Shown piece after piece: positions 1,286-63,901 of a DNA stretch of 64,000 nt (the stretch's first letter is position 1; each line of letters starts with the position of its first letter). Under the pieces are notes generated by a model. The model ran no database searches and had not been told where the DNA came from. It saw only the letters and a program-made list of their open reading frames with translations. The position numbers were made by a program, and so were the translations under genes. Origin of the DNA: a virus. The stretch spans positions 32,001-96,000 of IMG/VR virus record IMGVR_UViG_3300043788_000060; one strand, 5' to 3'.

Positions 1286-1430
1286 AGTTCAAAGAACAGG
1301 GGCAGAAATGTCAACTGTTCCTAGGCGGATAGAGCGCCCGGTCTAATAGCTGGCACATGGCGAGAGGAAGGAACAGGGTACCTTACGTCGTGCCGCCCTA
1401 TCCGTGACCCATTAGTCCGAATAATGGACT

Positions 1431-1525
1431 GCCGGAATTCTCAGGCGAGACGCTGGGTTTTATAAGCCCGGTTGTTGTCGGTCGATAGCCGATGCGCGAG
1501 AGATCGTCCCTCTCTTCCGGCCCCA
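1431..1525 (+). tRNA. tRNA with UAU anticodon (Ile) and long variable arm
   Basis: GCCGGAA/TTCCGGC, TGGGT-TTTATAA-GCCCG, variable hairpin GTCGGTCGATAGCCGAT, 3' CCCA. Confidence 0.7.
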
Positions 1526-1526
1526 C

Positions 1527-1601
1527 GGGTTGCAAGCTTTGATGGCGAAGCATCCGGCTCTTACCCGGAAGAACAGATTTCGATTATCTGGCAACCCACC
1601 A
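1527..1601 (+). tRNA. tRNA-Lys(CUU)
   Basis: GGGTTGC/GCAACCC, TCCGG-CTCTTAC-CCGGA, 3' ACCA. Confidence 0.9.
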
Positions 1602-1619
1602 ATTAAAAGTCAACACTGT

Positions 1620-1694
1620 GGGCCTCAAGCTTTAATGGTGAAGCAGTTGGCTTTTAACCTCCAGAACGGGGATCGTTACCCCGGGGGCCCACCA
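1620..1694 (+). tRNA. tRNA-Lys(UUU)
   Basis: GGGCCTC/GGGGCCC, loop CTTTTAA, 3' ACCA; mismatched anticodon stem. Confidence 0.82.
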
Positions 1695-1701
1695 AGTTTA
1701 T

Positions 1702-1779
1702 GCGCCAGTGGCTCGAAATGAACTAGGCCCCGAGCTTCTACCTCGGAGTATGCAGGTTTGAATCCTGTCTGGCGTTCCA
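1702..1779 (+). tRNA. tRNA-Arg(UCU)
   Basis: GCGCCAG/CTGGCGT, CCGAG-CTTCTAC-CTCGG, 3' TCCA. Confidence 0.85.
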
Positions 1780-1997
1780 TTTTGCGCAGGACCTCATCGT
1801 TGGCCCAGCAGAGATTTTGATATCCACGGGGTCTCACAGAAAGTAACCTGCGCAAATTTTTTCGAGGAGTTCAGATGAAAGTTGAATTCGCTTTTATGAA
1901 ACCTTGGTCCGGGATTTGGGTCGGGTTTCTCTGGGACGAACAAGTTAACGGATTATATATTAGTTTGTTACCTCCGTTTGTCATCAAGTTTCTATTT

Positions 1998-2073
1998 GGT
2001 CCCGTAGCTCAAGAGAACAGAGCGGTAGTTTCCTAAACTTCAGACCCGAGTTTAAGTCTCGGCGGGACCCCCA
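1998..2073 (+). tRNA. tRNA-Arg(CCU)
   Basis: GGTCCCG/CGGGACC, D stem GCTC/GAGC, loop TTCCTAA, 3' CCCA. Confidence 0.85.
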
Positions 2074-2163
2074 AGTTTGTGTGGTTAGCGAGGGAAGGGC
2101 AAGCTCCACCTCCCAAAGCGTTTGATGAGCAAAGGTAACAACAAACATCCACACAAAGTTTTT

Positions 2164-2238
2164 GCAGACGTAGTGAAACGGACATAATAAAACCCTCCGA
2201 AGGTTTAGTTGGCAGTTCGAATCTGCCCGTCTGCACCA
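2164..2238 (+). tRNA. tRNA-Arg(CCG)
   Basis: GCAGACG/CGTCTGC, AAACC-CTCCGAA-GGTTT, T-loop TTCGAAT, 3' ACCA. Confidence 0.88.
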
Positions 2239-2395
2239 TGTTTGTAACAGCAGCGAGAAATCGCAGGTAGGAACGCCCTTTCTGAGCGGTCAGCCGTCGT
2301 CCCGAGGCTTCCCATAATGGACCGGTGGGACATCACACAGATGTTAAACGCCCGCTATAATTTCGGGGCACTCAGAATCTGTTACAATTCGTTTT

Positions 2396-2473
2396 GCCGG
2401 GTTAACTCAGTCTGCTCAGAGTGCCTCTCTTACAAAGAGGAAGCCGAAGGTTGGAATCCTTCACCCGGTACCA
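2396..2473 (+). tRNA. tRNA-Val(UAC)
   Basis: GCCGGGT/ACCCGGT, CCTCT-CTTACAA-AGAGG, 3' ACCA. Confidence 0.88.
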
Positions 2474-2478
2474 TATTT

Positions 2479-2556
2479 CCCAGAGTAGCTCAAGTGGCTC
2501 AGAGCACTCGACCGATAATCGAGAGGTTGGGGATTCGATTACCCCCTCTGGGACCA
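2479..2556 (+). tRNA. tRNA-Ile(GAU), atypical C33
   Basis: CCCAGAG/CTCTGGG, CTCGA-CCGATAA-TCGAG, 3' ACCA. Confidence 0.85.
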
Positions 2557-2668
2557 TACAATTTATTTGCAGAATACTTGTGTATTGGCTTTCTGATGTC
2601 AAGAGCCGAATACGACAGCACATGGCAGTGCATAATAAATCGTCCTGCAAATGAGACATCAAATTTTC

Positions 2669-2746
2669 GCGGCCATAGCCAAGTCTGCTAAGGCAATAGT
2701 CTTCCAAACTATCATCACGCGGGTTGGAATCCCGCTGGCCGCTCCA
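2669..2746 (+). tRNA. tRNA-Gly(UCC)
   Basis: GCGGCCA/TGGCCGC, ATAGT-CTTCCAA-ACTAT, 3' TCCA. Confidence 0.9.
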
Positions 2747-2868
2747 TCGTTCCGCTACCATGTGTAGTCCGAATTGGCTCGACGGTTCCCGACGGGCCCC
2801 CAAAATTTTAGTCCGGATAATGGACTAATTCGATCCGAGCCCGAGCGCCGGAATCCCACGAGAACAAT

Positions 2869-4417: not shown

Positions 4418-4452
4418 ACTCGTCCGAATAACGGACAGAAAAGACAAATTCA

Positions 4453-5522: not shown

Positions 5523-5541
5523 ATCGTCCGAATAGTGGACT

Positions 5542-6576: not shown

Positions 6577-6842
6577 TGCCAGACTCTCGCGCAAAATCCG
6601 TGCTTGGTAAATCTGAACCTCACGGACAGGGAACCCGGGTTGCGGAGTATATTGAAACGCCTCTTCGCATTCACTGCGGAACTTGCGAATATCTTGTTGG
6701 CAAAAAATTTTGTAGACAAGGGAACGTAGCTAAAGACAAACAGGTCCCGACCGACAAATCTACCGGACTGAAAATTGTTGATCCCGTAAAAGGATGCTGT
6801 CGTTTTTGGGAGCCGGAAGACAAGAAAGATTTGTCCAAATAA
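6576..6842 (+). CDS. small 4-Cys protein, HiPIP-like spacing
   Basis: CGTCEY...FC...GCCRFW. Confidence 0.55.
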   Translation: MPDSRAKSVLGKSEPHGQGTRVAEYIETPLRIHCGTCEYLVGKKFCRQGNVAKDKQVPTDKSTGLKIVDPVKGCCRFWEPEDKKDLSK

Positions 6843-6851
6843 TGGACGTTC

Positions 6852-11855: not shown

Positions 11856-11914
11856 CCGTCCGAATAATGGACCAACAACTTCCCGTAAGTGAGGATTTCA
11901 CTTAGGAGTTCAGA

Positions 11915-14452: not shown

Positions 14453-16933
14453 ATGAGTTACTCTCCTACAAGTATCGTCACGAGCGGGGCGCTTCCGAAC
14501 TTAGTCGCAATTCACTATGAGCGCGAAGCTGTTCCCAACCTCAAGGCGCAAACTCCTTTCCTTTCCATGACCAAGCAGCGTCCGCTGCCGTTGCGGCAAG
14601 GTAACCAGATTCAGTTCTACACCTACGCGATCTTGGCTGCAAACCTGAACCAAGCCGCTGAGGGAACCGTGAATAAACCTGCGGTTCTAAAATTCGCCCA
14701 AATCCGTCAATACCTGTTTGCAGAAGCCGCCTAGTGTGGTATAATGTGAATAGACAAGACGGAGGAAAATTCTTGCGAAGCGACATCCATCCCAAGCGTT
14801 GGGCTTTCATAGCCGGTCTAATTGACGGTGATGGAAGTTTCAGTATCCGATATGACAAAGAGTCCGGATATCAATTAACTGTTAACATATATTCGACATC
14901 GAGAAATCTGATGAACTGGTTGGTCAAGCTGATTGGTGGCCAGTATCGAAAGATGCCTACGAAGGGCAATCGTAAACAGCGGTATGCTTGGTATTCAGGG
15001 AATTCAGAAATTCCCACCAATGTTGCTCCGTATCTCATTCTCAAGAAAAGTCAGGCAGAGTCTTCCGTTCTATTCTTTAATCTTGGCTCAGAGAGAAATC
15101 CTCAAGCTAGAGAAGAATTGATGAGAGACATTCAAAATGCTAATGACTTTTATGTACCAGCCAATAAAAAAGATGTACAGGATAGTCGAAAAAATCCGAT
15201 AGAACCCACCAAACTGGATTGGGCCTATCTCTCCGGATTGTTTGATGCTGAGGGGTCTTTCGGCCTCCAAAGGCGCAGCAAAAAGGGCAACGGTTCCTAT
15301 ACATCTTACGCACGAATTTCAAACACAGATAATCGGGTATTCTTGTGGATCGCGCCCCGCTTCGGCGGTCGGTTTTCGGTTACTACCAAGGAACACGATA
15401 AAGATGAAGGCGCATGGACGTTGTCCGGCTCCATCGGTTTAGAAGGAAGAAAAGATCGAGAGAACAAACTCTTGGCTTTGGTTCCTTATCTGGTTGCTAA
15501 GAAAGAACGTGCGGTGCTCTTTATGGAGTGGATTAGAAATAACCACCTATTGACCAAAGAGCAAAAATTGGATTATTTTCTGAGAATGAAGGCGTTGAAC
15601 AAACGCGGAATCTCTCTAGAGACTAATACGGCGAACTGTCCAGAAAATGGACAGATGATAGAGTCCGATCCTGATAGCGATATCAGGTGCGACCCAGCAG
15701 TGATGTTGGAGTCCTAAAACACAAATAAGGAAGCCCGATCTCCGAATCGAGCACCAAGATCGTTGCTACCATCGGGCAGTATGCCGATTTTATCAACAGT
15801 TCTGACTTGGCTCTCGACGTAGCAATCGACGATCCGGGTTTGCTCCAGAATCTGGCAAACGAACTCAACTACCGGCTTGCTCTTACCCTCAACTCTCTTG
15901 TCCAGATCACAGCGGACTCGGCAGTTGCGGTGGACTCGCTGGTCAACACACAACTGGCCAACGGCTCGTATCTGACGGCGAACAACCTTCGTTCGGCAGT
16001 TCAGTCGCTGGTATCGGTCAACGCACGGCCTCTCGTAAATAACTCCTACGGTGGAATCATTCACCCGAACGTGGTACGAGACATCCTCAACGACACGTCT
16101 TTCAATGGTCTAACCGACATTGTAAAGCGCGATCCTGAGATGGCGAAGATGCTGTACGAACTCCCGAAGAATGATGATGTTATCAAGTTCGCCGGGGTCA
16201 CGTTCAAGCAAACAAGCACTGCGCCGACGGTGACCATCAGTTCGAACACGTATTACAACACTTACATCTTCGGGGACGACGCGATTTTCAGCGTCTTCTT
16301 GGGCAAGAATCCCGAGGATGGATCGAAGAACTATTTGCAAAAAGTAGCTTGAGCGGGCAACTGCTCTCGAACAGACCGTAAATTCGGTGGAACCCTCACA
16401 GAGGCAATACCGAGCCAAGTCGCGAAAGCGGAAGGTGTAGAGACTAGAGACGGTCCTCCCTATGGGATGATAGTATAGTCCGGACTGCACAGCGATGTGC
16501 AGAGGCAAACAGAAATGATTTGCCCGTCCGAATAATGGACAGTAACAAAACGAAACTCTTCATCCAGAGTGCGCCTGAGCAGGGAAGTGTAAGTGATCCA
16601 GCACGTCAACTTTAGGCGTCACTAAGGCGAAATCCTTAGAAGAAAATTCTATCTAATTGACTTGGAAGCTGAGAAGCCAACAAGGCGGAACCCAGAAATC
16701 GGGACCGTGAGAGACTAAACGATAGAACACCCTTTGGGGTGATGCGATAGTCCGGCCTCATACGAAATGAAGTATGAGAGGTGTGCAGAAATGACGCACC
16801 CCGTCCATTTTAGACGAGTAACATTCCGCAAATTGGAGGCTGGGTTTCTTACAATGTACGGTACACAAACACTTTGCGTCCGGGCAGCACAATGACGCTA
16901 AGACGTTTGCAATCAGAGACATCCAGTTCATAG
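14453..16933 (+). CDS. major capsid protein, N4-gp56 family, 4 exons: 14453-14670, 15728 or 15731-16334, 16553-16606, 16829-16933 (326-327 aa)
   Basis: Spliced product reads ...PLRQGNQIQF...EGTV(G)SP...ATIGQYADF...GIIHP...SKNY|KLFIQ...SDPAR|QIGGWVSY...SSS*, matching the N4-gp56-type motifs EG-x-QYG, IHP and DP..Q..GW. Confidence 0.88.
14717..14746 (+). promoter_or_regulatory. sigma70-type extended -10 promoter inside intron 1
   Basis: TTTGCA-17-TATAAT with TGTGG extension, upstream of the LAGLIDADG ORF. Confidence 0.7.
14773..15717 (+). CDS. double-motif LAGLIDADG homing endonuclease (intron encoded)
   Basis: FIAGLIDGDGSF and YLSGLFDAEGSF; GGAGG SD at 14761 before TTG. Confidence 0.93.
   Translation: MRSDIHPKRWAFIAGLIDGDGSFSIRYDKESGYQLTVNIYSTSRNLMNWLVKLIGGQYRKMPTKGNRKQRYAWYSGNSEIPTNVAPYLILKKSQAESSVLFFNLGSERNPQAREELMRDIQNANDFYVPANKKDVQDSRKNPIEPTKLDWAYLSGLFDAEGSFGLQRRSKKGNGSYTSYARISNTDNRVFLWIAPRFGGRFSVTTKEHDKDEGAWTLSGSIGLEGRKDRENKLLALVPYLVAKKERAVLFMEWIRNNHLLTKEQKLDYFLRMKALNKRGISLETNTANCPENGQMIESDPDSDIRCDPAVMLES
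16335..16552 (+). mobile_element. group I intron 2 of the capsid gene (ORF-less, 218 nt)
   Basis: 5' exon ends CTAT pairing with GTAG; core AATTCGGTGGAA..GCAATACCGAGCC, GAGACTA/ATAGTCC; terminal G16552 restores the frame. Confidence 0.9.
16607..16828 (+). mobile_element. group I intron 3 of the capsid gene (ORF-less, 222 nt)
   Basis: P1 ACGT/GCGT, P3 TTCTATC/GATAGAA, GAGACTA/ATAGTCC; terminal G16828 restores the frame. Confidence 0.9.
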
Positions 16934-18703: not shown

Positions 18704-18970
18704 ATGTTTAAAAAGGTCCGCCTGAGCCTGCCTGCCTATTATTGCGTTCTTGGACAGTTCCCGCATTGTGACCAAAGAATTCTTCACGCCCGGGGCGAGT
18801 GCCAATATTGTGATAAGCACCCAGACTGGCAAGCTCTTCGGGAGGCGTGGGGAATATCCTTTACTGGATACGAACCGGAAGACAAAGAATTGCCCTGTCC
18901 GGCGGATTATGCACGAGGAGATTCTCATAAGCTCTGGTATGGAAACGTAGCAGCGAAGGAGTCCGAATAA
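18704..18970 (+). CDS. Cys/His-rich hypothetical protein
   Basis: PHCD..ILH..GECQYC; AGGAG SD; stop lies inside the 15-bp motif. Confidence 0.65.
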   Translation: MFKKVRLSLPAYYCVLGQFPHCDQRILHARGECQYCDKHPDWQALREAWGISFTGYEPEDKELPCPADYARGDSHKLWYGNVAAKESE

Positions 18971-19206
18971 TGGACAAATTCAACCCATTTCGCAAGCTGG
19001 TCCCAAAGTCCAACCGAGTTGTCGGCGCAGTCAAAGCAATCCCGCTGTGGTTCCGGCCTAACATCAAACCGTGGGGTTACTACTCCGGAAGATTGGAAAG
19101 TCGTCCGGATTTCCGGAGACCGAACAGGGTACATCGAATCGAGATTTGTGCAGTAGTTTTTTACTGCATTTGCAGTAAAATGCCCGAGAGGGCCAAAACC
19201 AACTGA
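18970..19206 (+). CDS. hypothetical protein
   Basis: Start ATG supplied by the 15-bp motif (TAATG overlap). Confidence 0.45.
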   Translation: MDKFNPFRKLVPKSNRVVGAVKAIPLWFRPNIKPWGYYSGRLESRPDFRRPNRVHRIEICAVVFYCICSKMPERAKTN

Positions 19207-21005: not shown

Positions 21006-21038
21006 ATTTCGTCCAGATAATGGACTAGGGAGAAAACG

Positions 21039-22521: not shown

Positions 22522-23179
22522 CCATGCGCCGTCTACTGTTTGACCTTTCGCTTCCGTTCGTTATCTGTTGGGGATTACTTATCTGGTTTATCGCCAACTG
22601 CGGAAATGGGGGCGATTGGCAAACATGGATGGAAGACCATCTTTCGTAGTTTGCGCGGGGAGCCTAAATACACCGGCCAAGACTCTGAGAGGGCCGGACG
22701 CGCAAAGTTTTAATGTCCGAATAATGGACAGCAGGTTGCCTTTCACAGAGGAGTCGAACCGCTGGTTTACTAGCCCTAATCTGGCGGCAAGGTTACTTTA
22801 ACAGGTTGTTCCAAGGAGCAGGACTCGCCGCAGACGATCTCTACGGAGGAGCAGTTTCTGAAGCGCAACCGGGCAACGTCATCGTAATATCCGAAACGAA
22901 TCGCGACCTGCCCTTTTTACTTCCATGCCAAATCATATCAAAAATCTCGGTATATGTGCTCTTTGCAGACAAGAGGTATTGTCAGTAATGGACCTAAAGG
23001 AGCATGTCATGGGAGATGTTAATAAAAATGGTTTGATTGGCTGGTCCGAAGGGAAAGATTTATCTCCTCTTTGAAAGCAACTTTGGTGCAGCAAATGTAT
23101 TGCTCGCATCCACCCACGGATATGTATCTGTCCACATTGCAAAGCCGCCAAACTATCCGAATAATGGACTAAGGAACTC

Positions 23180-24989: not shown

Positions 24990-25051
24990 AGTAACCGAGT
25001 TTCCGGCCTCGACAAAACCGGATTGTCCGAATAATGGACTACGGAGTCAAA

Positions 25052-40317: not shown

Positions 40318-40351
40318 TTAGCAATTAGTCCATTATTCGGACGGAGAAACG

Positions 40352-46331: not shown

Positions 46332-47131
46332 GAATAACCACGTCAGCACAGTTTGTCTGGAGCGAGAAGCAGAATAAATATCTGCTCGTTAAAAAGTCGT
46401 CCATTATCTGGACTGGCGATATTTTGTATTGCAAGGGCGCGTCTGCCGCACAGGAGAATTTGGCGAATCAGCAGGCGCAATTCTACCAAACACTGACTTC
46501 GGATTACGGACAGCAATTCGCAAATCAATCAGCAATTCTTAATACTCTTCAGAATTCTTTGAACCCTATCGTCCAAGCCGGACCAAACCAGTTCGGCTTC
46601 AGCCAAGCAGAGACCAACAACCTCAACGCGCAGGCTATCCAAGGAACCGGGGCGCAATACGCCAACGCCTCGAAAGCTTTGGGTGCCCAGCAGGCCGCAC
46701 AGGGCGGGGGAAATTCATATCTTCCAACCGGGGCGCAAGCCGCACAGCAAGGAGCGTTAGCTTCGTCTGCTGCAAATCAAGCTTCGAATCAACTTATGGG
46801 GGTTCAGCAGGCGGGTTACCAGCAAGGCTATAACCAATATCAATCTGCTATCGGCCAACTCGGCGGAGTAGCTTCTCAATACAATCCAACCGGATACGCC
46901 GGACAGGCAACTGGTGCCGGATCGTCTGCCTTCAATTCTGCAACTCAAGTTCAGCAAATGAACAACGCAGCAAGTCCGTGGAATGTAGTCGGCGGAATCC
47001 TCGGAGGAGCCGTAGGCGCAGGACTCGATGCGTTTACTGGCGGTCTTGGCGGGGCTGGGGCCAGCGCGTTAGGTGGCATGTTCAGTGGAGGTAATGGGGG
47101 ACCATCGACCGGCGGCGGACTAGATGACTAA
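46328..47131 (+). CDS. DNA ejection (pilot) protein
   Basis: Q/A/G/N-rich with a Gly-rich hydrophobic C-terminus. Confidence 0.7.
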   Translation: MRITTSAQFVWSEKQNKYLLVKKSSIIWTGDILYCKGASAAQENLANQQAQFYQTLTSDYGQQFANQSAILNTLQNSLNPIVQAGPNQFGFSQAETNNLNAQAIQGTGAQYANASKALGAQQAAQGGGNSYLPTGAQAAQQGALASSAANQASNQLMGVQQAGYQQGYNQYQSAIGQLGGVASQYNPTGYAGQATGAGSSAFNSATQVQQMNNAASPWNVVGGILGGAVGAGLDAFTGGLGGAGASALGGMFSGGNGGPSTGGGLDD

Positions 47132-49125: not shown

Positions 49126-52100
49126 ATGGCTACCGACTCAGTAGACCTAAGCAGCATCTGGGGGAATACCTCCGCTTCGGCTCCTCAATCTAGCTCGACC
49201 GACTTGAGCAAAATTTGGGGTTCGGGAGGGGGTGTTCCTCCTGTTGTGTCTCGGGCGCAAGAAACCCCTTCGTCCAGCATAGACCTCAGTTCAATCTGGG
49301 GCGGAGGAGAAGCTCGTCCGAATAATGGACAAACCGCCCCGTTACCGGTTCAGCACCTCTACCAAGACTCTTCGCAGCCGTGGTATAAACGGGCATGGGA
49401 TTTCGCGAATACACCACTGACCGAGAGCCTGTTCGGCCTACCCGAAGAACGCCAAGGCGCGGGTGGTTTTGAACGCGGGGTCGAACACATTGTTTCCGGA
49501 TTGACAAGTCCGCTTTCCGTGGCTCTAACCGCTGCTACGTTTGGGACCGGTGGAATCATTGAATCAGCCGGAGCTTCTGCACTCAAGGAAGCCGGTTTGA
49601 CGGCTGCTGAGATTGCGGACGCTACCAAGGCTTCCCAAGTCGCGGTGGACGCGGCTAAAGCCGTCCCAGAGGGCGCTACAGCTATTACTGACGCTGTCAA
49701 GGACGCTGGACTCGATCCGGCTCTCTGGAAGCGGGCACAGGGCATTTTGTATGACAACGGCCTGACCGAGCATGACCTGCTGGGGGGCAATGCTGTCGAG
49801 CGCGGGGCGTTCCAAGTTCTACGCAATACCGTACCCGATCTACCAATTGCCGTAACTGCGAGGGCCGCTAAAACCGCCAATACCCTGTTGAACGCAGGAT
49901 TCACCCTCCAACAATTGGAATCAGCATCCGCGATGTCCCCCCGGTTTTTGGATGCTCTTAAAGAGGGGGACTACGACCACGCCCTAGAATACGGCACAGA
50001 GATGTTTGCTTCGGGGGCCCTCGGAGTTCTGGGAGCAAGTCATGCCCTGCACTCCGCTGGCGAATTATTCAAACCCCTAGTTGAAAACAACGCCGTTCGT
50101 CCTTCCGACGAATGGAACGCGATTACCCGGGCCAACCAAGAGCGCGAAGCCCAGCACGCCGAAGCCGAACAACACGCCATCAATTTGTCCAAGCAAGCCA
50201 AGGATTTGCTAGGGCACGCGGAACCACGTCCGATTTTGGGTGATACCGCCGAAGTGAAATCCCAGAAGAATCTGGAACTGGCTACGGTTCTACATCAGAT
50301 TGTAACCGGCGGAGACCAGACGAAAGCTGCAACTTGGCATGACGCATTGGCCGAAGCCGCTGGCCGCACCGAAGAACCAACGCTGGTTCATCCGAATAAT
50401 GGACCGGTCGGCAACCCCGACGTTCAATCGCTGGCCGAAAGCTATACCAAATCCGCAGGCATCGACAAAACTCCACACGAAGGTCTGGTCACCGTAGACC
50501 CGGAAGCCGCGAAACGGGTTGCTGACGCCTACGAGGAGATGCAACATAACCCGAACGACCCGAAGGTCAAGGCGTCCTACGACGCTTTAATCCGGGAAAC
50601 CAAGGCCCAGTGGGATGCCGCTAAAGCCGCCGGATACAAACTAGAGCCGTGGCCGGAAGCTGGACAGCCCTACGCCAATTCCGCAGAAATGGCTGCGGAT
50701 GTTCGGGACAACAAGCACCTCTACTACTTCCAAGGCGGAGAAGTCCCAGAAGGGCACCCGCTCGCGCAGATAGACCCAGAAACCGGAGAAACCTACAACA
50801 ACATTTTCAGAGCGGTCCACGATTTATTGGGACACGCCAAAAACGGCTACGAGTTCGGCCCTCGTGGTGAAGAGAATGCTTTCTTAGCTCACAGCCGGAT
50901 GTACTCGGACGAAGCCATCCCCGCGCTGCTATCCGAAACCAAAGGCCAGAATTCATGGGTAAACTTCGGTAAGCACCTCCGCGACGAGAACGGAAATCTG
51001 CCCGCCAAAGGTGAGAAGGGTTTTATCCCACCGCCGGAAAGGCCCTACGCCGATCAGAAAGCTGGCATCCTACCTCCCGAGATCGTCAACCCGCATCTCG
51101 GCAAAGAACCTCAAGTAGGAACCCCGATTGAAACACCGAGTCGTGCCAACACCCAAGTCGTTCACTCGAACGCTGCGGGTGAAGTGCGTGTCGGCGCAGA
51201 CGGCAGACCGATTGTCTGGTTGAGCCCGGAGGCGTGGGAAGCGTATAATAGAATCGCGCACCCGGGTGCCATAATTCTAGGGGTCAGCTACTCTCCGGAC
51301 GAAGCTGCTGACATTGCCAAGAAACTGCTCAAAGCAAACGAACCGGGAGACGCCCAACAAGTTCTCGATTTGTTCTGGAAAGCCCAGAATGTTTCAAAAC
51401 AAGGATTGCTCACAGCGGCTAAAACCGGAACGGATGTCACGGTTGCTGCCGAGGAACTCCACCATACATGGGCCCGAGAATTGTCTAAGGACGGAGAAAT
51501 TGCAAACCATCTAAAACCCAAGCAGTGGATCAAACTAAATGATATAATACCCCCAGCTTGGACTGCGGACATGGATCGGCTGGGGTACGAAAAAGACCCG
51601 ATCTCCCGTGTCATAGAAACCGCACACCAGTTTAGGGCTGGAAAAGCAAAGGGTATAGTTCCAGATACCGATATTGTTCGGTTTTTGGACTCCTACTATT
51701 CCGAAGTTGAAGCAACCCACGGGAAGAATGTTCTTGAAGAAGCAAACAAAATCAATGACATTGCTGCCCAACACATAAAGGACATTTATGAAAACAGAAG
51801 AACGAGACAAACTACTCCAGAAGGTGGGCTGGCCGACCGACAAACAGACAACGGACAGCTACCTAGCGTGGAAGCAGGGCGGGAAACTGGGCCTCCTAAA
51901 GTGGGTTCAGGAGAACCACCAGAAGGCTTAACCGCCCGCGAAGACAAAGAATTCAGCAAACTTTCCGGTCTAAAACTCCGTGTAGGAATGGGAGACGCGG
52001 GGAGTGCCGGTTTAGTAACTGGGGACAACGATGTATTGATTGGTAGAGACCACGCCGAACTCGCAAGAGAAGCTGGGTACAAAGCTACGCCTGCTGTCGG

Positions 52101-55100
52101 AAACAAACCCGGAGAAGACCTCTACTCCAAGTTCTTCAGAGATGGTGGTGTCAGAATCCGGTCGTTTGGCGGAACTGTCAATATCGACTTCATGGAACCG
52201 AACGCCGATACTTGGGACAGAGTCTATCGCTCGATAGCCTCGGTTCCGGACGCAAATTATTATCGGGTAGAATTCCGTCCACTAAAAGGTGGAACCGGTT
52301 TCAATATCGATGCCTACGACAAAGACAACCTGTTATTCAAACTCAAGGATTTGGAAAACGGCGGAACTCGCCCGGCTCCTGCGGGAAGTGTGCAATATTT
52401 CAGGCAAGGATTGTTATCTCGCGAAGGGGAATACAGGAATAAAGAACCCAGATTTCCCGGGTTGGCCGCTCGGGGCTCCGTAGACTTCGAAGACATCAAG
52501 CCATATCTAACGGATGAAGAGCTTACCAAACATGACTCTCCCGAAAAGAAAGCTCTGCTTACCGCCGCATTTAACGCGATGCCCGACGCCGACGAATGGA
52601 AAGAAGCAATTAAAGCTGGACGTGCCGGACAGATGTGGTATGAAAGATCGTCCCGCGCCTTCGATGCCCTGCTCGATTCCGGTGCTGACTTCATCTCGAA
52701 GAAAGATAAATCGAAATTCCTGAATTTCGTCGCCGCTCTTTCTCCGGTTCAGCCGGTCCGTCAAAACCTGCTCATGGCTTTGAACCTTTGGTCAAAGTGG
52801 GACAAAGCCGGTCGTCCGACAGACGTTGAATGGAAAGACGGAGCCCCGAATAAGAACGCTTCGCTCTGGAGAATTCTCAAGGGACGAGGAAACACACAGG
52901 GAGTAGACCTGCCAGCAAGAATGAACAACGCAATTCGTGCGTTGCAGGGCGAGCCCCTGTCCGGACCCAAAGTATCGGCGTTTACCACCAACTTGGGTAA
53001 GGATGTCAACCGGGTCACCAACGACACATGGATGGCCGTGTTCGGCGGTCACGATCCGAACCGGATCAACAAGCCCGCCGTTTACGACGCCATGTCCGCC
53101 AAGGTCCGCGAAGCGGCTAAATCGGAAGGCATCGCCCCGCGTCAAGCCCAAGCTGCGATCTGGAGCTTCATCAAGTCCCTAGCCGAACTATCAGGCTGGG
53201 GCAATGACCGCTGGATTCCGCCCCAAGAAATCATCAAGCAAGGTCTGCTCACGCCAGAGTTAGTTGGTATGCACTCGGCGGATTTCGCAGACATGCTTCA
53301 GAACGATCCCGAAATCCGGGAAGCTATCCGGAAAATAGGAGGAGACCTAAATGCCCTCGACTCAAAACTCAAATCTTACGTCCCCGGAAAGCCTGCCGAG
53401 GGAGAAGCTGCGGTCGCTAGTCCTCAACTTCTTAACGCGGCTCAAAGACTCGAAGCCGCCCGCACCGACTCAAGAATAGCAGCGCACCTCGCACGCAAAC
53501 AAGAACCCGGTTTGTTCGATACGGAATTCCGTCCGAATAATGGACTATTTGCGCGAAACCCAGAACTCACCCAGCAGATCGATTCGAACGTCTTCAAAAA
53601 CCAGCCCAAGGAATATCAGGACCTTGTCCTCAACTCGTTACGTAGAGTAGCGAACGGAGAACTGTCTGACCGCGAGCAAGCGGCAGCGAAATTCCTGCGC
53701 GACGAACAGGATAAGAACTTTGAAATCGGCTCGTCGAACGACCTGCTCCATCACTACCTCGAAGACTATATGACCCGCGTGTACAAGGACACCAACCCAC
53801 AGGGCAAGGTGATTTTGTCGGACGCCAAGGGCGGCAGATTCGCGACCAATGTTTCGATGGCCAAGCAGCGGGTGTACGACTCGAACCTGACTGCGTTGCT
53901 CAAATCTCCGAAGCAGATGCTGCTGGACCCGGTAGACATCACGGCCAGAGGTCGGGCTATGCTCATTAAAGCAGCGGCGAACCGGCAGTTGATTGATACG
54001 CTTCGGGATAAGTTTACTCGTGCGTCAGACGGTCGGCCTGCGGTTGTATTGTCTGGGGCCGGACAGGTTGTCTCTGGCGCAAACGGCGAGGACCCGAAGA
54101 CGTTCATCGATCCGAACCGCGTTCGTAAAATCAACATCTCACCGAATGTCGTAGAGCAGTTATCAAAATCCGGCGACTTACAGAGATTTTTGGACGAGGG
54201 TACGATCCGGGATATCACACCGTATGTCCGCCCAAACAATATTTCTGCTGCAATCGAAAAGTTGGAAGCGCAATACGATGAAGTGGGTAACAACAAACTT
54301 CGCACAGATATCATGTATCTGAAGTCGGTGTTGAACAACAAAGATTTCTCGGGACTCAAAGATTTCAACGACAAACAGCCGAAGCAATACGCTTGGGACC
54401 CGCAGGACTATATCAGCTTGGCGAACGGCGCGATGAAGGGCTGGAATTTTGTTACAAACGACTCCGCCGGGAACGGTGTGTATGTCCGTAGCGATATCAA
54501 GGTACATCCTGAATTTGCCGAGTATCTCCAGAATCGTTTGGGTCTAGCTCCGTCCGACATTGCAAAGCACCCTGTGGGTAAAGCGTTACTCGGAGCAGGA
54601 ACTAAGTTGAAGGAAACCCTGCTATCGCTGTCACCATTCCACATGGTGCAGGAAGCTCTGCGTGGAATTATGGTGGGAGTGAATCCGTTCCATATCACCG
54701 GTCCAGACATTCTGACCGGCGAGAAAGTAGACCCCACCGATCCGAATTCGCCGACGATCATCCGCAAGGCCGTCGAGCATGGGTTTACGACCGGCACGGA
54801 TTACAATGCCTTACAAGCACACAGCGAGGGCGTGGCGTCTGGTGGCGGTGGATTGCTTTCGAAAATTCCGGGAGTAGGCAAAGTCCTGTCTAATTCTCTA
54901 GATTGGTACCAGAACTTCCTCTTCAAGCGGTACATACCGGCGCTCAAGGCCCGCTCTGTTGAATTGATGTACCACGAATATCAGAATGCTCACCCTGATT
55001 GGTCGGTAGATAAGATCGCCAAAGCTGCTGCTATGCACACAAACGATACGTTCGGCGGAATCAACTGGAAGGCAATGGGCCGGTCTGCTACTACTCAGGA

Positions 55101-56142: not shown

Positions 56143-56160
56143 CTGTGTCCATTATTCGGA

Positions 56161-56529
56161 TTAAATTTGATCTGTTGGGTCTCGCAGGATGTTTGCTTCT
56201 CGTTGCGCGGCTCCTTGGGCCTTGGCTTGGTTACTGCGCTCCTCCAAAATCTTCTCTGCGACCGCGCAAGCTCTCCACGCCATAGCCCCGGCATGGCTCA
56301 CCCCGTTTTCGTCTGGGTCGTTTCGCTGTATGGCGTGTCTAATCATGGCATCGAAGTCGTCTTTACTTTTTGATCTGTCCCAGTGAAGCGGGGTTCCCGG
56401 AACGTGCTGTTTGTTTCCGGCTACACTCGCTTTCGCTATCTCAGTCATTGTCAGAGGAAAGTAATCCAGCACTCCGGTTCCGATAGGAATCTCCTTTCGT
56501 TCTTTTGCGTCAGTCGGCAACAACGGCAT
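56161..56529 (-). CDS. dATP/dGTP diphosphohydrolase-like protein (DUF5664)
   Basis: GVLDYFP..GNKQH..LHWDRSKS..DAMIRH..AWRA. Confidence 0.8.
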   Translation of the reverse strand: MPLLPTDAKERKEIPIGTGVLDYFPLTMTEIAKASVAGNKQHVPGTPLHWDRSKSKDDFDAMIRHAIQRNDPDENGVSHAGAMAWRACAVAEKILEERSNQAKAQGAAQREANILRDPTDQI

Positions 56530-56923: not shown

Positions 56924-56961
56924 ATTATCCGTCCATTATTCGGACAAATCGTGTGAAAAGG

Positions 56962-57471: not shown

Positions 57472-57722
57472 AACCTAATTACCTGCCCATTCGATTTAAC
57501 TCCGTACTTCTCCCCGAGTTCGTACTGCCTTGGTTGCCGGTCTTTATCCCTACGCCCTGTAAGGGGTTTCGTCTCGTCCAGATTTCGGACGGGTTCGTAG
57601 GTGCCGTCGAGGTCTTTCAACCATTGACGCCATACGGCAAAGAGCCCGGGATCACGTTGTCTGAATAATGGACTTCCTCCGGAGGCGTGGCCATAGATTG
57701 AGGTTCCGATGTTTTGGTTCAT
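57468..57722 (-). CDS. hypothetical protein
   Basis: 4-nt overlaps with both neighbours. Confidence 0.6.
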   Translation of the reverse strand: MNQNIGTSIYGHASGGSPLFRQRDPGLFAVWRQWLKDLDGTYEPVRNLDETKPLTGRRDKDRQPRQYELGEKYGVKSNGQVIRL

Positions 57723-58555
57723 ATTGGTCTCACTGGAAAACCGGTTTTGAATCCGGCGGCGTGTTTATGGCCCCCGCCCCCGTACTGTTTTGCGATTTCG
57801 GACACATCAATCCCGTCATCAGTCGATCTCAAACTGAAGTGGGCGTAGTTTCCGTCGAGATAAAACGTCGATCCAAATGGTTGTCCTTGTGCCAGAATAT
57901 GTCCGGCGTCCGACGAAAACGTGTATGGTAAGTTACAGGTCCAAGTCTCGTATCCGCCAATTGTAATCCGGAATTTGTTTTGTAGAAGTTCCTTGGTGTC
58001 CTTCTCCTGTTTCCGAATAATGGATTTTCCAGCTAACAAGAGTTCGTTGGGTAATTCGCCTCGCTCTGCATCATACTCAACTTCTGTGTGGGTTACTTCC
58101 CAGAGGCTGAAATCGTACTCAAGACTGAAAAGGTAAGCAGAGAACGCTTTAGTTTCCGGGTACACAAATCTCCACAAATCCCGATCTTCTACATATCTCA
58201 CAAGATTCGGAACATCGACGTAAGAGTGAAAATGCTCCCAAGCCAGACGTGCTCCGGACTTTCCCAGATCGAAATGCACGAAAACATTATCGGGCAAATT
58301 GACTAGATCAGCCTCGGCGGTTTTGTGGTGGTCCAAGATTGTGATGTCTTGGGCCTGTTTTGCTAATTCCAAAATCACCGGTCGCTTGTAAGAGAAGTCC
58401 ACCATGTAGACGATTCTATCTGTCACATCAGGCGGCGGGTCTCCGTGTTTAGCGGGATAGAAATCCCATCCCGGATGCGCCCGCCATACGGCCCAAGCTG
58501 CGGTAAATCCGTCCTGACAGTTGCCGTGATATATGACGATAGGTTTGTCAGTCAT
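57719..58555 (-). CDS. DHH/DHHA1 phosphoesterase
   Basis: IYHGNCQDG, VDFS, LDHH, DRDLW, SLRS, GGGHKHAAGF. Confidence 0.92.
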   Translation of the reverse strand: MTDKPIVIYHGNCQDGFTAAWAVWRAHPGWDFYPAKHGDPPPDVTDRIVYMVDFSYKRPVILELAKQAQDITILDHHKTAEADLVNLPDNVFVHFDLGKSGARLAWEHFHSYVDVPNLVRYVEDRDLWRFVYPETKAFSAYLFSLEYDFSLWEVTHTEVEYDAERGELPNELLLAGKSIIRKQEKDTKELLQNKFRITIGGYETWTCNLPYTFSSDAGHILAQGQPFGSTFYLDGNYAHFSLRSTDDGIDVSEIAKQYGGGGHKHAAGFKTGFPVRPI

Positions 58556-60251: not shown

Positions 60252-60445
60252 TAGTCTGGTTGTCCTTCCCACGGATTTTCGCCCGTGACTGCTACGAATC
60301 CTTGTTTCAGTTCTCGAACCACTTCGGGCAGAATAGATTTCAATTGCACGATGTGAAAAGTATCTGACATCGGGAGTTGCAGTCCGTGTGTCAAATTATC
60401 AAGTCGATCTATAGCCTGCCCCAGAATCTCTTTCGCGTCGTCCAT
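60251..60445 (-). CDS. hypothetical protein
   Basis: Start supplied by the TAATG of the 15-bp motif. Confidence 0.6.
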   Translation of the reverse strand: MDDAKEILGQAIDRLDNLTHGLQLPMSDTFHIVQLKSILPEVVRELKQGFVAVTGENPWEGQPD

Positions 60446-60636
60446 TATTCGGACTCCAATTCCGCCGGAACTTCCACATCCGGCTTCAACTCTCCCAGAA
60501 TGTCTTGGGCCAGCAAAGTCTGCCCGTCCTCAAGACCCTTGGCATAAATCCACTGGTCTTCCGAATCGATTTTCCTTGCCAAGGCTCGGGTTGCGTATTT
60601 GTTCAACAAACCCACGGCGGCGTCTGAAATTTTCAC
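60445..60636 (-). CDS. hypothetical protein
   Basis: Ends ESE* inside the motif. Confidence 0.6.
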   Translation of the reverse strand: MKISDAAVGLLNKYATRALARKIDSEDQWIYAKGLEDGQTLLAQDILGELKPDVEVPAELESE

Positions 60637-60932: not shown

Positions 60933-61262
60933 TGAGCCTCCGGGTCATGGGCCGCGCACCGGGGTTGCACAGACGATTTGTCCGGGCTCCCGAAAATATC
61001 TTTGGATGCCAGTACCCAGACAGTCGCCGGTTGTTGGCAAACCGTGCATTTTCTCGGCGTTGAATATTGGGAAATCGGTCGGCTCATTTTGTTCCTTCAC
61101 TAAGACAATAGAGTAGGAAAAGAAATTCTATTGCACATATTACGGAGTGAAAAATAGACTCAGAAAACTCTCCTGTAAATATTGGGTGGGGTACAGGAAC
61201 AATCAGATCGCGGAATCCAATAAAGAACATGATAGCCCACGCAAAACGCATTACTAGCTTTT

Positions 61263-61445
61263 TCATTGCTCCTCCTCCTCTTCGATATCTGCCCGCTCCT
61301 GAATAAACAAAGCGGCTCCGGCAGCTATCACTAATACCCCCGCGATCCAAGATTTCTGGACAACAGAGACCACCAACGCACCACCTAAAATCGAGGCGAG
61401 AATATCTCGTAATACGTGGCGCTCAACTCGGATGGTGTGTTTCAT
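61263..61445 (-). CDS. small two-TM membrane protein
   Basis: Two hydrophobic segments; AAGGAG SD. Confidence 0.6.
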   Translation of the reverse strand: MKHTIRVERHVLRDILASILGGALVVSVVQKSWIAGVLVIAAGAALFIQERADIEEEEEQ

Positions 61446-61879
61446 ATTTTTACTCCTTGGTGCTTTTCCAGATAATCAGCAGCAGACCGCAGAATTTTGG
61501 GGTCATCCTGAAATTTTTGAAGACCCGCGTTGTGTGTATAGCACAAAAGGCCCCGGACACTGGCTCGTTTGAGCCTGCTCTTCACTTCTTTCAATGCCGC
61601 TGACTTCGTCCGTTCAGTAGCGTAGAACTCCGTTCCGTTATATACAGCTACCGCTTGCCAGCAATCCGGATAGTTGGTCGATTCAATCTTAACTTTCTTC
61701 CAGCCATGGTCGTGATCCACGTGCAATCTCTTTGCTCCGGGAGGCCGGTGACAGATGTAACACCCCCCTCGTCCCTCGCGCAACAAAACTTCGTATTCAG
61801 CCAGTGTGATGCCGTATTTGTTCCTGAGCCTCCGGTCGGTTTCTCTATCGAGTTGTTCCTGTGTCTTGGGTGTGGTCAT
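61442..61879 (-). CDS. endonuclease VII-like protein
   Basis: YGITLAEY, CYIC, LHVDHDH, VRGLLC..HN.GL. Confidence 0.88.
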   Translation of the reverse strand: MTTPKTQEQLDRETDRRLRNKYGITLAEYEVLLREGRGGCYICHRPPGAKRLHVDHDHGWKKVKIESTNYPDCWQAVAVYNGTEFYATERTKSAALKEVKSRLKRASVRGLLCYTHNAGLQKFQDDPKILRSAADYLEKHQGVKI

Positions 61880-62040
61880 AAAGAACCTTTACTGCATTTC
61901 CAAACCGCTGGACTCGGCGTACTCCAGACCTGCACGGTCTTTTTCCCGCACCCCGGACACTCAGGCGGTTCGTCCATTTTTCGGACTAACCGGTCGAACT
62001 TGGTGTTGCAGTGGGCACATGAATACGAATAGACGGGCAT
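61876..62040 (-). CDS. FmdB-family zinc ribbon protein
   Basis: MPVYSYSCAHCNTKFDRL...CPGCG; 54 aa, not in the ORF track. Confidence 0.8.
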   Translation of the reverse strand: MPVYSYSCAHCNTKFDRLVRKMDEPPECPGCGKKTVQVWSTPSPAVWKCSKGSL

Positions 62041-62042
62041 GG

Positions 62043-62264
62043 TTACTCGTTGATGAAAATCGTCCGGATTTCCGGGTCTTGACTGTCGTAATGATCGCCT
62101 TGGATATCGATGAAGTCGTCAATTTTTAGTTCTTGAGCCTTGGACACAGCCTCCTCCCAAGAGGACGCAGAGATATCTATTCCAATGTCGGCTCGGATTC
62201 GCCCAGTTACATTATAAGACTTTGTGCCTGTCGTTGCTTTCTTCGTCGCCATGTTTCTCCTCAT
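62043..62264 (-). CDS. hypothetical protein
   Basis: ISASSWEEAV motif; contiguous with neighbours. Confidence 0.6.
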   Translation of the reverse strand: MRRNMATKKATTGTKSYNVTGRIRADIGIDISASSWEEAVSKAQELKIDDFIDIQGDHYDSQDPEIRTIFINE

Positions 62265-62626
62265 TTGCAGAAAATCATTTGTCCGATTTCCGCAGTTCTT
62301 GTGAATGGTTTAAGCAAGTCCGGGGTCAGCTTGTCTTTCGATACAAACCATAGTGCCCCGTCAGTTTTGTCCGGCACTCTACCATCGAGCACCGATTCGA
62401 TTTTTGAAATCAAGTTCTGAAATTGCGGGTCCCGGATATCAGGAAAATCGCCGTCTGGATTTTCATCAATGTAAGAGGCGGCTACTCGGTAGATATCTTG
62501 TTGTATAGCCCGAGCCCTGTTCATGAACGTCTGGCAGACCGCCAGCATCACCGAATGAAGTTCGGTTCTGGCCGCCCTCCAGCAGGCCAAAGCGATGATC
62601 GAAGTGGTAAAGTCGTTAGGCGTCAT
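62261..62626 (-). CDS. SleB/Hydrolase_2-like cell wall hydrolase, catalytic Glu apparently lost
   Basis: LACWRAARTE..MLAV...MNR..DKTDGALWF..IGQMIF. Confidence 0.68.
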   Translation of the reverse strand: MTPNDFTTSIIALACWRAARTELHSVMLAVCQTFMNRARAIQQDIYRVAASYIDENPDGDFPDIRDPQFQNLISKIESVLDGRVPDKTDGALWFVSKDKLTPDLLKPFTRTAEIGQMIFCK

Positions 62627-63017
62627 GCGGCTCGCCCCCCGGGTCGTCAGAACTATACCCGTCCGGTTGGGGAATTGGATCGTTCTCCGATCTCATTTGC
62701 ATCGGTTGATCCAATTTATGTGCCAGCCACGGAGGTAATGTAGATTTTTCCTCGGCATCTTTGGGAAATTCGATTACCTTCTTCTGTACTGCTTCGTATC
62801 CGGGCGGTAGGAAGTATTGAGCGGCGTGCAACTGGCAGCAGAAGGCCATCTGGTTCCCGTTGATGTTGAGCAGTACCAAGTATTTTGATTCATCTGGGGC
62901 CTGCTGCCTGCCCGCCTCGACTTCGGTCATGTTCCACGAAACAACTGCCGGAACCCCTTGTGGGGTCTTACATCCGGAGTAATCGCAAGTAACCATTACT
63001 GATTTCGAAACGCCCAT
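62616..63017 (-). CDS. Zn-binding hypothetical protein
   Basis: TCDYSGC...FCCQLH. Confidence 0.65.
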   Translation of the reverse strand: MGVSKSVMVTCDYSGCKTPQGVPAVVSWNMTEVEAGRQQAPDESKYLVLLNINGNQMAFCCQLHAAQYFLPPGYEAVQKKVIEFPKDAEEKSTLPPWLAHKLDQPMQMRSENDPIPQPDGYSSDDPGGEPHDA

Positions 63018-63518
63018 TTACACCTCAAACTTTTGACGCAATTTCATTATACCACACTTTTGTCTCCAGCGCACAGCATCAACCGAAATTCCTAATTTTT
63101 CTGCGGTTTTTGCTTGGGTGAGACCTTCGATGAATAAGCTCCGGATCACGGATTGTTCCTCCCCGGGCAACGAATCGATAGCCTGATATAATTCCGATTC
63201 CGAAACTTCGCCTTCGATTTCTGCTGCGATTCTTTCTAGATGCCGGGCCATCGACGGATCATCTGCTGACACCAGTTTGGGGGGTTTGCTGTACCCTGTC
63301 CACGGTCTCAGAATATTTCGAACCTGCTTTTGACAAATCTCCAGTGCTATGTCTTCGTGGTCGGGCCCAGTAAGTTTGTCCTGATTCTCAAGTAACGCCA
63401 CATAACAATCTTGAGTCAGGTCTTCTTTCTGAGTTTTGTTGAGCCTGATTTTGCCCAGCCCTATTCTCGATGTGAGAGCGATTTTGATTACCGGTGCGTA
63501 TTGAGTAACGTCTGCCAT
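63018..63518 (-). CDS. sigma70-family (ECF-like) sigma factor
   Basis: Region 2-like EDLTQDCYVALL; region 4 AIDSLPGEEQSVI..EGLTQAKTAEKLGIS. Confidence 0.8.
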   Translation of the reverse strand: MADVTQYAPVIKIALTSRIGLGKIRLNKTQKEDLTQDCYVALLENQDKLTGPDHEDIALEICQKQVRNILRPWTGYSKPPKLVSADDPSMARHLERIAAEIEGEVSESELYQAIDSLPGEEQSVIRSLFIEGLTQAKTAEKLGISVDAVRWRQKCGIMKLRQKFEV

Positions 63519-63526
63519 TTTGTCCT

Positions 63527-63901
63527 TTAGGACTTGATTTTTGCTGTGTGCCAACGCCGATTCCCATGAGCAGAATCCGGACTTCCTGTGTGGCATTGGT
63601 GGCACAACGCCTCACAATTTTTCATCGAAACTTCGCCTCCACTGCCTTTGGGAATTGTTTCGTGCATCTCGAACGTTTCCCACCGAATATTTCTACCGCA
63701 TCTCTCGCATTCACTGGTTTCTCCGCCTGCGGGGGAATCTCCGGTTGCCCTAGCGAAAACCTGAGCCCGGATTGCCCCTACCGCGTGTGCTCTGTCCATT
63801 ATTCGGACTTCGTCTACGGGCAGGTCTCGCCAACTGCGGTCTCGGAAAATCCGGATTGGCAGGCCATTCAATCCGATTTGGACGTGGACTTGCTTAGACA
63901 T
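63527..63901 (-). CDS. HNH endonuclease domain protein
   Basis: CERCG..EMHE.IPKGSGG...NCEALCHQCH. Confidence 0.78.
   Translation of the reverse strand: MSKQVHVQIGLNGLPIRIFRDRSWRDLPVDEVRIMDRAHAVGAIRAQVFARATGDSPAGGETSECERCGRNIRWETFEMHETIPKGSGGEVSMKNCEALCHQCHTGSPDSAHGNRRWHTAKIKS

Follow-up and report, generated by a model that had tools for sequence, protein, structure and literature searches.

A dispersed 15-base near-palindrome, most likely a protein recognition site, in a large family of uncultured phages

Short repeats spread over a whole genome are known from few cultured phages, namely the stoperators of the Cluster A mycobacteriophages, whose reader in phage L5 is gp71, and the dyad repeats of the Cluster O mycobacteriophages. 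We describe an element of the same kind, a 15-base near-palindrome, in a large, uncultured, probably lytic phage family that likely infects Acidobacteriota. It was studied in a 64,000-nucleotide stretch of DNA (the window), bases 32001–96000 of the 110,256-bp virus record IMGVR_UViG_3300043788_000060, rated complete. Stoperators, as described in part in PMC4351075, are asymmetric sites of temperate phages, read by a monomer and oriented almost uniformly with transcription. The Cluster O repeat is a 17-bp dyad, TGTTCGGNNNCCGAACA, with more than 30 dispersed copies per roughly 70-kb genome and inverted arms around a short A/T-biased centre (PMC4351075). About one third of its copies lie in genes and most are away from promoters; their direction bears no meaningful relation to transcription, and the phages give no evident sign of being temperate (PMC4351075). 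Its authors predict a dimeric DNA-binding protein, the function being unsolved (PMC4351075).

The window was searched with the 15-mer GTCCGAATAATGGAC, sequences with up to two mismatches being counted as near-exact copies. A first-pass annotation, made by a model from the letters alone, had reported 13 exact and about 12 near-exact copies. All 13 exact copies were recovered at its coordinates, against none in 100 shuffles; near-exact copies also exist but number 16, giving 29 copies at two mismatches or fewer where shuffles predict 0.15, far above chance. The whole record holds 26 exact copies, 54 at up to one mismatch and 63 at up to two. The pattern read backwards has no match in this record and none in six related genomes, and the motif recurs in related phages from many metagenomes, so that an assembly artefact, a possibility that the annotation had raised, is set aside. 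By a crude gene call the genome has two arms, 23.2–88.1 kb on the plus strand and the remainder on the minus strand; copies occur at about one per 2 kb, equally in the early/replication arms and in the late arm.

From 332 distinct copies the consensus is GTCC-R-R-N-W-AAT-GGAC, and the invariant skeleton across the family is GTCC-N4-AATGGAC. Information is confined to the 15 positions; the flanks show weak preferences only, at two positions on each side, and no -35 partner or other conserved flank was found within 25 nucleotides (nt) of the motif on either side. Position 5 is a purine in all but one copy (G 262, A 69, C 0, T 1) and could pair with U11. In our view the motif is real and under selection, marking places over the whole genome that are most likely recognised by a protein.

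More than 100 related IMG/VR contigs share the motif, which is present in about 50–60 copies per genome. The exact 15-mer was found in over 106 IMG/VR stretches, about 75 of which are relatives at 65–78% nucleotide identity, mostly with several copies each; lone matches in contigs of odd GC content are as many as chance predicts. The motif was traced through uncultured phages of about 100 kb, with 40–56% GC, down to 39% terminase identity, so its conservation in relatives, which the annotation had left to be checked, extends through a deep phage family. Related whole genomes carry 27–70 copies each, and 332–730 distinct copies were collected over the family. Every genome has its own dominant centre: GAAT in this genome, and AGAA or GAAA, GGAT/GGGT/GGTT, AGAT, or ATTW in other lineages. 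GGAA is the centre of the roughly 50 copies in the relative whose terminase identity is 39% and whose GC content is 40%. Such lineage-specific centres are as expected if the sites co-evolve with a reader. In the G007 lineage both arms have changed together, to TTCC..GGAA, and the G002 lineage carries perfect palindromes, GTCCATTWAATGGAC; a fully palindromic version of the site would be GTCCATTTAATGGAC. A motif-free relative of 70 kb has no copy at all, and no analogous repeats were found in the motif-free terminase relatives. Several blastn similarity blocks start or stop at motif copies. A more distant phage, L298 (IMGVR_UViG_3300021401_000004), has a sister motif RTACGGAAAACGKAN, RTAC-GGAAAAC-GKAN, in 16 dispersed copies within 21 kb, and the motif family therefore reaches beyond GTCC..GGAC.

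The copies in the window are listed below; signs give the strand of the site, and anti-oriented copies point against the local genes.

1415..1429 (+): exact copy within the tRNA array, with the next tRNA 1 nt on
2811..2825 (+): 1-mismatch copy, centre GGAT, downstream of the final tRNA, with gene 2869 43 nt further on
4422..4436 (+): 1-mismatch copy (AAC), intergenic, after 4037-4417
5526..5540 (+): 1-mismatch copy (AGT), intergenic, after 5091-5522
6833..6847 (+): 1-mismatch copy, TAA being the stop of 6576-6842, with the terminase ATG 4 nt on; site flipped at this junction in L125, L134 and L139
9171..9185 (+): 1-mismatch copy in gene 8942-9307 (read as PNNG), its nucleotides being conserved in about 12 orthologues
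11858..11872 (+): exact copy, 2 nt past the portal stop; flipped in L125, L134 and L119
13230..13244 (+): exact copy, TAA being the stop of 13018-13239
15638..15652 (+): copy by the family pattern, with AGAA as centre, within a weak match to a group I intron; additional to the 29
16526..16540 (+): exact copy in the capsid gene region, between two intron-like matches
18961..18975 (+): exact copy, TAA stopping open reading frame (ORF) 18704-18970 and ATG starting ORF 18970-19206
21011..21025 (+): 2-mismatch copy, centre AGAT, directly before the Shine–Dalgarno (SD) sequence and ATG of 21039
22715..22729 (+): exact copy, intergenic
23155..23169 (+): 1-mismatch copy directly before the SD and ATG of 23180
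25025..25039 (+): exact copy, ATG starting 25034-25372, which heads the 15-kb tail operon; no other copy in this operon is co-oriented
28187..28201 (-): 1-mismatch anti-oriented copy in the gene for a 2295-amino-acid (aa) protein; same orientation kept in G001 and G005
32489..32503 (-): 2-mismatch anti-oriented copy in the 2295-aa gene
40328..40342 (-): exact anti-oriented copy, intergenic, 9 nt before the ATG of 40352; kept in G005 and G007, flipped in G002
44736..44750 (+): 1-mismatch copy in gene 42230-45394 (PNNG)
46399..46413 (-): 2-mismatch anti-oriented copy in gene 46328-47131
49316..49330 (+): exact copy in the 2322-aa gene (PNNG), kept in orthologues
50390..50404 (+): 1-mismatch copy in the 2322-aa gene
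53531..53545 (+): exact copy in the 2322-aa gene, last of the plus arm, kept in orthologues
56147..56161 (-): 1-mismatch copy lying between the convergent terminator and the final stop codon of the minus arm
56931..56945 (-): exact copy, with the ATG of 56510-56923 7 nt on
57659..57673 (+): 1-mismatch anti-oriented copy
58011..58025 (+): 2-mismatch anti-oriented copy in 57719-58555
60440..60454 (-): exact copy, TAA stopping 60445-60636 and ATG starting 60251-60445
61972..61986 (-): 1-mismatch copy, centre GAAA
63794..63808 (-): exact copy upstream of the sigma-factor gene region

The contexts first described for the copies were borne out: gene junctions upstream of SDs, spacers of the tRNA array, and genes in which the site reads PNNG or VRIMD. 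Placement inside introns held in part. The capsid gene region has group I intron-like matches at 15511-15687, 16324-16502 and 16585-16771 (best E = 6e-10), all of which score just or well under the Rfam gathering score; copy 15638 lies inside one of them and copy 16526 between two. A GIY-YIG homing-endonuclease gene (17074-17853) adjoins the three matches.

Junction copies are wedged between the upstream stop and the downstream SD, or overlap them, and copies also stand 1–4 nt before tRNAs. The motif TAA is the stop codon in 28 copies and the motif ATG the start codon in 15, while in about 40 copies a start codon follows 4–14 nt after the motif; the genome economises in this way, with TAA and ATG of the site doubling as stop and start codons. 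Conserved copies are found within and after the last gene of each arm. In-gene copies keep the same place and the same nucleotides in orthologues of 40–80% amino-acid identity. The codon before the motif, whichever residue it stands for, tends to have GT as its last two letters, the codon after the motif begins with C (Q, L, P or R), and within the motif AAT is chosen over AAC and GGA is retained while adjacent residues vary. The suggested check on synonymous positions of in-gene copies thus came out in favour of the site, and across these orthologues selection is seen to act on the DNA of the in-gene copies.

As first noted, the copies mostly run with the surrounding genes (23 of the 29 in the window) and reverse direction at about 56.1 kb; the exceptions had been given as 40328, 57659 and 58011 alone, and there are six (28187, 32489, 40328, 46399, 57659 and 58011). 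Orientation with transcription holds as a count in the window; as a property of the site it failed on comparison with other genomes. In nine genomes, copies that touch no long open frame divide into 69 co-oriented and 58 anti-oriented (p = 0.37). Copies inside ORFs of the same genomes divide 165 to 84, and 47 copies are co-oriented of necessity, their TAA or ATG serving as a codon. On the sense strand of long ORFs the asymmetric core AATGGA is 1.3–1.7 times commoner than its complement, a bias that covers most of the in-gene co-oriented excess. A-richness alone was rejected as the source of the orientation bias for the common centres, GAATAAT being rarer than its complement on the sense strand (17 vs 39). 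The strong bias in the window needs no directional mechanism, since the use of TAA and ATG as codons and the ordinary coding-strand bias account for it.

Orthologous junctions tell the same. At the junction before the terminase gene, five lineages have the site in plus and three in minus orientation. Ahead of the portal gene, four lineages have it in minus and two in plus, and behind that gene most have it in plus, with three in minus. The leader sequences flanking the flipped sites are kept throughout. Anti-oriented copies, for their part, are kept in relatives (28187 and 40328 in the window, 100298 in the genome). As judged from these genomes, orientation is dispensable for the function of the site. 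An apparent alignment with transcription can come purely from coding economy, a caution for similar motifs.

The architecture of the site is that of a dyad. Around an exact GAATAAT centre the arm pair is GTCC/GGAC in 142 of 239 cases, with no other complementary pair seen. Flank preferences are mirror images: position -1 is T in 146 and C in 105 copies, position +17 is A in 174 and G in 107, and the avoidance of G at position 0 mirrors that of C at +16. Apart from a modest covariation of an outer pair in G008, left and right flanks covary no more than in shuffled controls, and the first flanking pair is complementary less often than in these (z = -3.1). Mirrored flanks without covariation point to two independent, identical protein half-sites and not to a stem. 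The half-site is Y-H-G-T-C-C; the two half-site centres are 11 bp apart around an A/T-rich centre, a spacing that would place both on one face of the helix. One side of the dyad is extended to AATGGAC.

With moderate confidence, and from comparative sequence evidence, we read the copies as double-stranded DNA sites for one sequence-specific, most likely phage-encoded protein that binds as a symmetric dimer. The first proposal, of binding sites for a phage protein, is to this extent upheld: conservation and dyad half-sites support a genome-wide selected protein site, and the L5-type form of the idea is not sustained. We infer a reader that is a dimeric phage protein acting on transcription or on chromosome organisation. 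It would act at about 45–70 fixed places per genome, with the site in either direction, most of these places being tiny intergenic gaps or written into coding sequence. At a few extended -10 promoters the bound reader may occupy the -35 region; elsewhere bound sites may serve as a non-polar roadblock, an insulator or an architectural site. Four points weigh against this reading. In most lineages the centre has a consistent asymmetry (RRNW-AAT) that a simple homodimer would leave unexplained. Some 95% of copies have no recognisable promoter beside them, and the effect of binding is a guess. Co-orientation in this genome is high (42:10 by the family pattern), so that a residual directional preference is possible. 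Finally, no binding protein was identified among the candidates and the G000 proteins profiled.

The link to promoters comes from a second repeat family. Host-type promoters of the form TTGACA-N16-17-TATAAT cluster in the early region, and there are in addition 17 copies of an extended -10 promoter, TGTGGTATAATG (TG-TGGTATAATG), all pointing with their genes:

14737, 16985, 20201, 42180 (-) and 63054 (-): copies in the window
7591, 11512, 15202, 20138, 104535, 108625 and 110078 (-): copies on the minus strand, genome coordinates
26600, 26780, 27357, 30250 and 31890: copies given without a strand sign, genome coordinates

These are probably promoters of the phage for the host polymerase; they precede the Ro60 gene, stretches of tRNA and non-coding RNA, homing-endonuclease genes and several replication genes. 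Host-type promoters (TTGACA-N17-TATAAT and TGTGGTATAATG) are nearly absent from the structural arm, which leaves the late genes without an obvious promoter. Six motif copies in five genomes end 5–7 nt before TGTGGTAYAAT, in either orientation, where 0.4 would be expected locally; they cover about -37 to -22, that is, the -35 region. Downstream lie RecT, an RNA-ligase operon and a primase-helicase, and no gene common to all of these arrangements was found. TANNNT at the matching distance from the motif is in mild, twofold excess. The fixed spacing suggests that the reader probably meets RNA polymerase at some promoters.

Two further features of the late arm were noted. A leader at 11883-11912 and 13255-13284 consists of CCCGT, a hairpin with the constant loop GGATT, then AGGAG and ATG, before two late genes; its stem varies between relatives and appears to covary, so that it looks like a structured element of the 5' untranslated region. 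The same leader junctions are present in L077, L123, L016, L125, L136, L139 and L143. Antisense in the late arm is a NUMOD3-containing endonuclease-like gene (41437-41919, -), driven by a perfect TTGACA-N16-TATAAT promoter at about 42199-42171.

The search for the reader took in the following gene, on which the promoter reading discussed below is based:

63018-63596 (-): sigma-70-family (ECF-like) gene, with matches to Pfam Sigma70_r4 (E = 8e-11) and to PDB sigma factors

Its product is 192 aa as called, the true start being probably an internal Met that gives about 166 aa. Orthologues occur in seven of the ten related genomes searched, which include most of the motif-bearing ones, and are fast-evolving (27–47% identity); the gene was not found in motif-bearing G008 (72% complete), in motif-free G006 (66%) or in the 25-kb fragment G010 (23%). 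Neither this gene nor the helix-turn-helix (HTH)-phosphoesterase gene 59115-60251 could be tied to the motif. The product of the latter, a 378-aa protein encoded on the minus strand, was rejected as reader: unrelated phages without the motif commonly carry the gene, and the N-terminus of the protein does not follow the motif. Its predicted fold (pLDDT, the predicted local distance difference test, 82.5) has two N-terminal HTH units and a C-terminal Mre11/PolD-DP1-like metallophosphoesterase; among 1863 homologues the N-terminal module is swapped between phage families, and the homologue in L298, the phage with the sister motif, has a different N-terminus. A phage RNA polymerase was also discarded, no called gene having a DxDGD-type motif. 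The two giant proteins gave no identifying match in Pfam, PHROG or PDB sequences, and nothing in the protein atlas. Profiling of G000 proteins against the motif-bearing genomes and the sole large motif-free relative (G006, 66% complete) singled out no reader. Identifying the reader would reveal a little-understood mode of whole-genome control or organisation in lytic phages.

The genome around the sites encodes a terminase and an SU10-type portal, homing endonucleases and its own replisome (PolA, clamp, clamp loader, primase-helicase and SSB). About 40 tRNA genes follow a Ro60 (TROVE) gene at genome 28.7–34.8 kb (L010 10751-15779; window 198-2746). Recombination genes comprise RecT, endonuclease VII, a PD-(D/E)XK nuclease and a split UvrD-like helicase, together with an integrase-family tyrosine recombinase (genome 15181-16161, -) that is kept at 33–40% identity in six of nine related genomes compared, five of the eight motif-bearing ones. 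The N- and C-terminal genes of the UvrD-like helicase (genome 647-1456, -, and 2166-3188, -; L009) are about 700 bp apart, with a small ORF and two motif copies in between, and the C-terminal piece starts at a motif ATG. Three genes in the window stand beside one another:

56161-56529, 56962-57471 and 57719-58555 (-): a MazZ-type gene with DUF1643 and DHH-phosphoesterase genes beside it

One of them has a MazZ-type dATP/dGTP diphosphohydrolase N-terminal domain (E = 6e-7), and the group may point to manipulation of the nucleotide pool or to a modified base. Megablast against 50,697 deposited phage records gave no match. Peptide-pattern scans for the terminase and portal found no relative in one genome each of 185,579 species, and there is on that account no sign of lysogeny; the family is probably lytic, judging from its sequences. 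A homologue of the 378-aa protein, 61% identical, lies on a 5.36-Mb contig (chromosome) of Silvibacterium acidisoli, which hints at Acidobacteriota as the likely hosts.

Other explanations of the copies are taken here from the most to the least probable. We consider it unlikely that the copies are -10-type promoter elements read by the ECF-like sigma factor of the phage itself, in the manner of kuravirus phiEco32. In phiEco32/SU10 the gp36 sigma reads AATGTA/tAATGTATAtA 6–8 nt upstream of the start site, at six promoters only, which are oriented with the genes, lack dyad arms and have a defined distance to the start site (PMC12276001, PMC4281155). The present genome does encode a small sigma-family protein and a kuravirus-like, SU10-type portal, its invariant core AATGGA is one base from AATGTA (PMC12276001, PMC4281155), its structural arm is nearly without host-type promoters, and at two late junctions the motif stands about 10 nt before the conserved 5' hairpin. 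A promoter, however, would not be expected to lie in either orientation between genes (69:58), or to flip at orthologous junctions though the leader downstream stays. Conserved copies located within the last gene of each arm and beyond it, copies 1–4 nt before tRNAs, and equal densities in early/replication and late arms are equally out of keeping with it. Many motifs have an SD or ATG inside them or 4–14 nt away, leaving no room for a start 6–8 nt downstream; the dyad arms are left unexplained, and against 50–60 copies here phiEco32 has its six promoters.

The copies might instead work as RNA, each a hairpin with a 4–5 bp stem and A-rich loop bound by a phage protein, for boxB-like antitermination or for Csy4-like processing or insulation; we think this quite unlikely. 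The 15-nt shape has the size of the lambda and P22 boxB, the purine at position 5 could pair with U11, folding is predicted at -3.4 to -5.5 kcal/mol (z-scores -2.1 to -3.8), and copies do occupy the gaps from stop codon to SD and those between tRNAs. A single compensatory change, at positions 1/15, and the modest covariation of an outer pair in G008 add to this. Inversion, however, replaces the loop, and inverted copies are common, conserved and interchangeable at orthologous junctions. The stems are fixed in sequence without covariation (142 of 239 cores), flank pairing is depleted and not enriched, the predicted folding is weak, there is no boxA-like partner or promoter-proximal placement, and cuts in conserved coding copies would destroy messages. 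The suggestion of an RNA hairpin processing signal falls with the loss of the loop on flipping, the lack of flank covariation and the depletion of extended pairing.

Oriented stoperators of the L5 type, the analogy first drawn, would have a lysogenic repressor on asymmetric sites block elongation one way and silence the prophage. This is improbable here. In their density, about one every 2 kb, and in occurring both between and inside genes the copies are like the stoperators of Cluster A, the lineage-specific centres recall the divergence of immunity groups, and an integrase-family tyrosine recombinase is conserved in the family. The site is near-palindromic, however, with symmetric half-sites, and its orientation is not kept, as the 69:58 intergenic split, the flipped junctions and the conserved anti-oriented copies attest. 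Nor is there a sign of lysogeny: terminase and portal have no relatives in one genome each of the 185,579 species, no repressor was identified, the gene set looks like that of a lytic phage (a replisome of its own, a sigma factor, homing endonucleases and about 40 tRNAs), and copies do not overlap early promoters.

It is decidedly improbable that the copies are cut, nicked or exchanged by the tyrosine recombinase or a phage nuclease, for replication that depends on recombination or for the exchange of modules between co-infecting relatives. With two short inverted arms flanking an asymmetric spacer of 7 bp, the motif is like a minimal core site, and the lineage centres could set compatibility; copies stand at gene boundaries and at conserved in-frame positions of large multi-domain genes, several blastn blocks begin or end at them, and RecT, endonuclease VII, a PD-(D/E)XK nuclease, a UvrD-like helicase and a recombinase are encoded. 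Arms of 4–6 bp are nevertheless far shorter than known recombinase arms, fifty active sites per genome would delete or invert essential DNA, and differing orientation at the same junction would block productive exchange between relatives. The analogous Cluster O repeats showed no link to rearrangements (PMC4351075).

Still less probable are sites of a host nucleoid or regulatory protein, exploited or titrated by the phage. Fis-type sites follow the loose pattern G-N2-Y-R-N2-W-N2-Y-R-N2-C, which G1, Y4, R5, W8, Y11, R12 and C15 fit together with the A/T-rich centre, and the skeleton is constant over phages of 40–56% GC. A palindrome with an A/T centre, however, meets that pattern about once in 32 by chance, the information in the motif is far above that of known nucleoid-protein sites, and both the lineage centres and the change of arms to TTCC/GGAA speak for a reader that evolves fast and is carried by the phage. 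Least probable of all is that the copies are joints for a tyrosine recombinase or site-directed nickase, position-conserved in-frame points at which co-infecting relatives would exchange genes or domains, the 7-bp centre setting compatibility. Nothing positive supports the recombination/nicking and host-protein readings.

The comparative evidence in this case is unusually strong, with a skeleton unchanged over very deep divergence, synonymous positions kept and centres that differ by lineage. The motif resembles T4 MotA boxes, which lie at about -30 of middle promoters, in that a few copies take the place of the -35 element, with constant spacing to a good -10, before replication and recombination genes; it differs in that about 1–5% of copies are so arranged, and in either orientation. 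Unlike boxB hairpins, it has a stem without covariation, depleted flank pairing and a loop that is lost on inversion. With phiEco32/SU10 it shares an ECF-like sigma gene, an AATG core and an SU10-type portal, but its 50–60 copies stand in either orientation, many in genes and not all at operon heads. Like Cluster A stoperators it has dozens of copies, in short intergenic gaps and inside genes, and a consensus that differs by lineage; unlike them it is near-palindromic, with symmetric half-sites and, in one lineage, perfect palindromes, and intergenic copies divide 69:58 with orthologous junctions flipped in some relatives.

The closest described system is the Cluster O 17-bp dyad repeat, and the present motif is an independent case of its kind with deeper conservation. 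Both have short inverted arms, more than 30 dispersed copies, no functional orientation, a mostly off-promoter placement and about one third of copies in genes. Sequence, phages and hosts are unrelated, and megablast found no match in the 50,697 phage records; the likeness is one of analogy and not of common descent. The arms here are shorter, at 4–6 bp, and they enclose a longer centre of 7 bp with a consistent asymmetry. Beyond what Cluster O offers, the motif described here doubles as stop and start codons, has lineage-specific centres, can be traced to 39% terminase identity, and keeps its in-gene copies in position at the nucleotide level.

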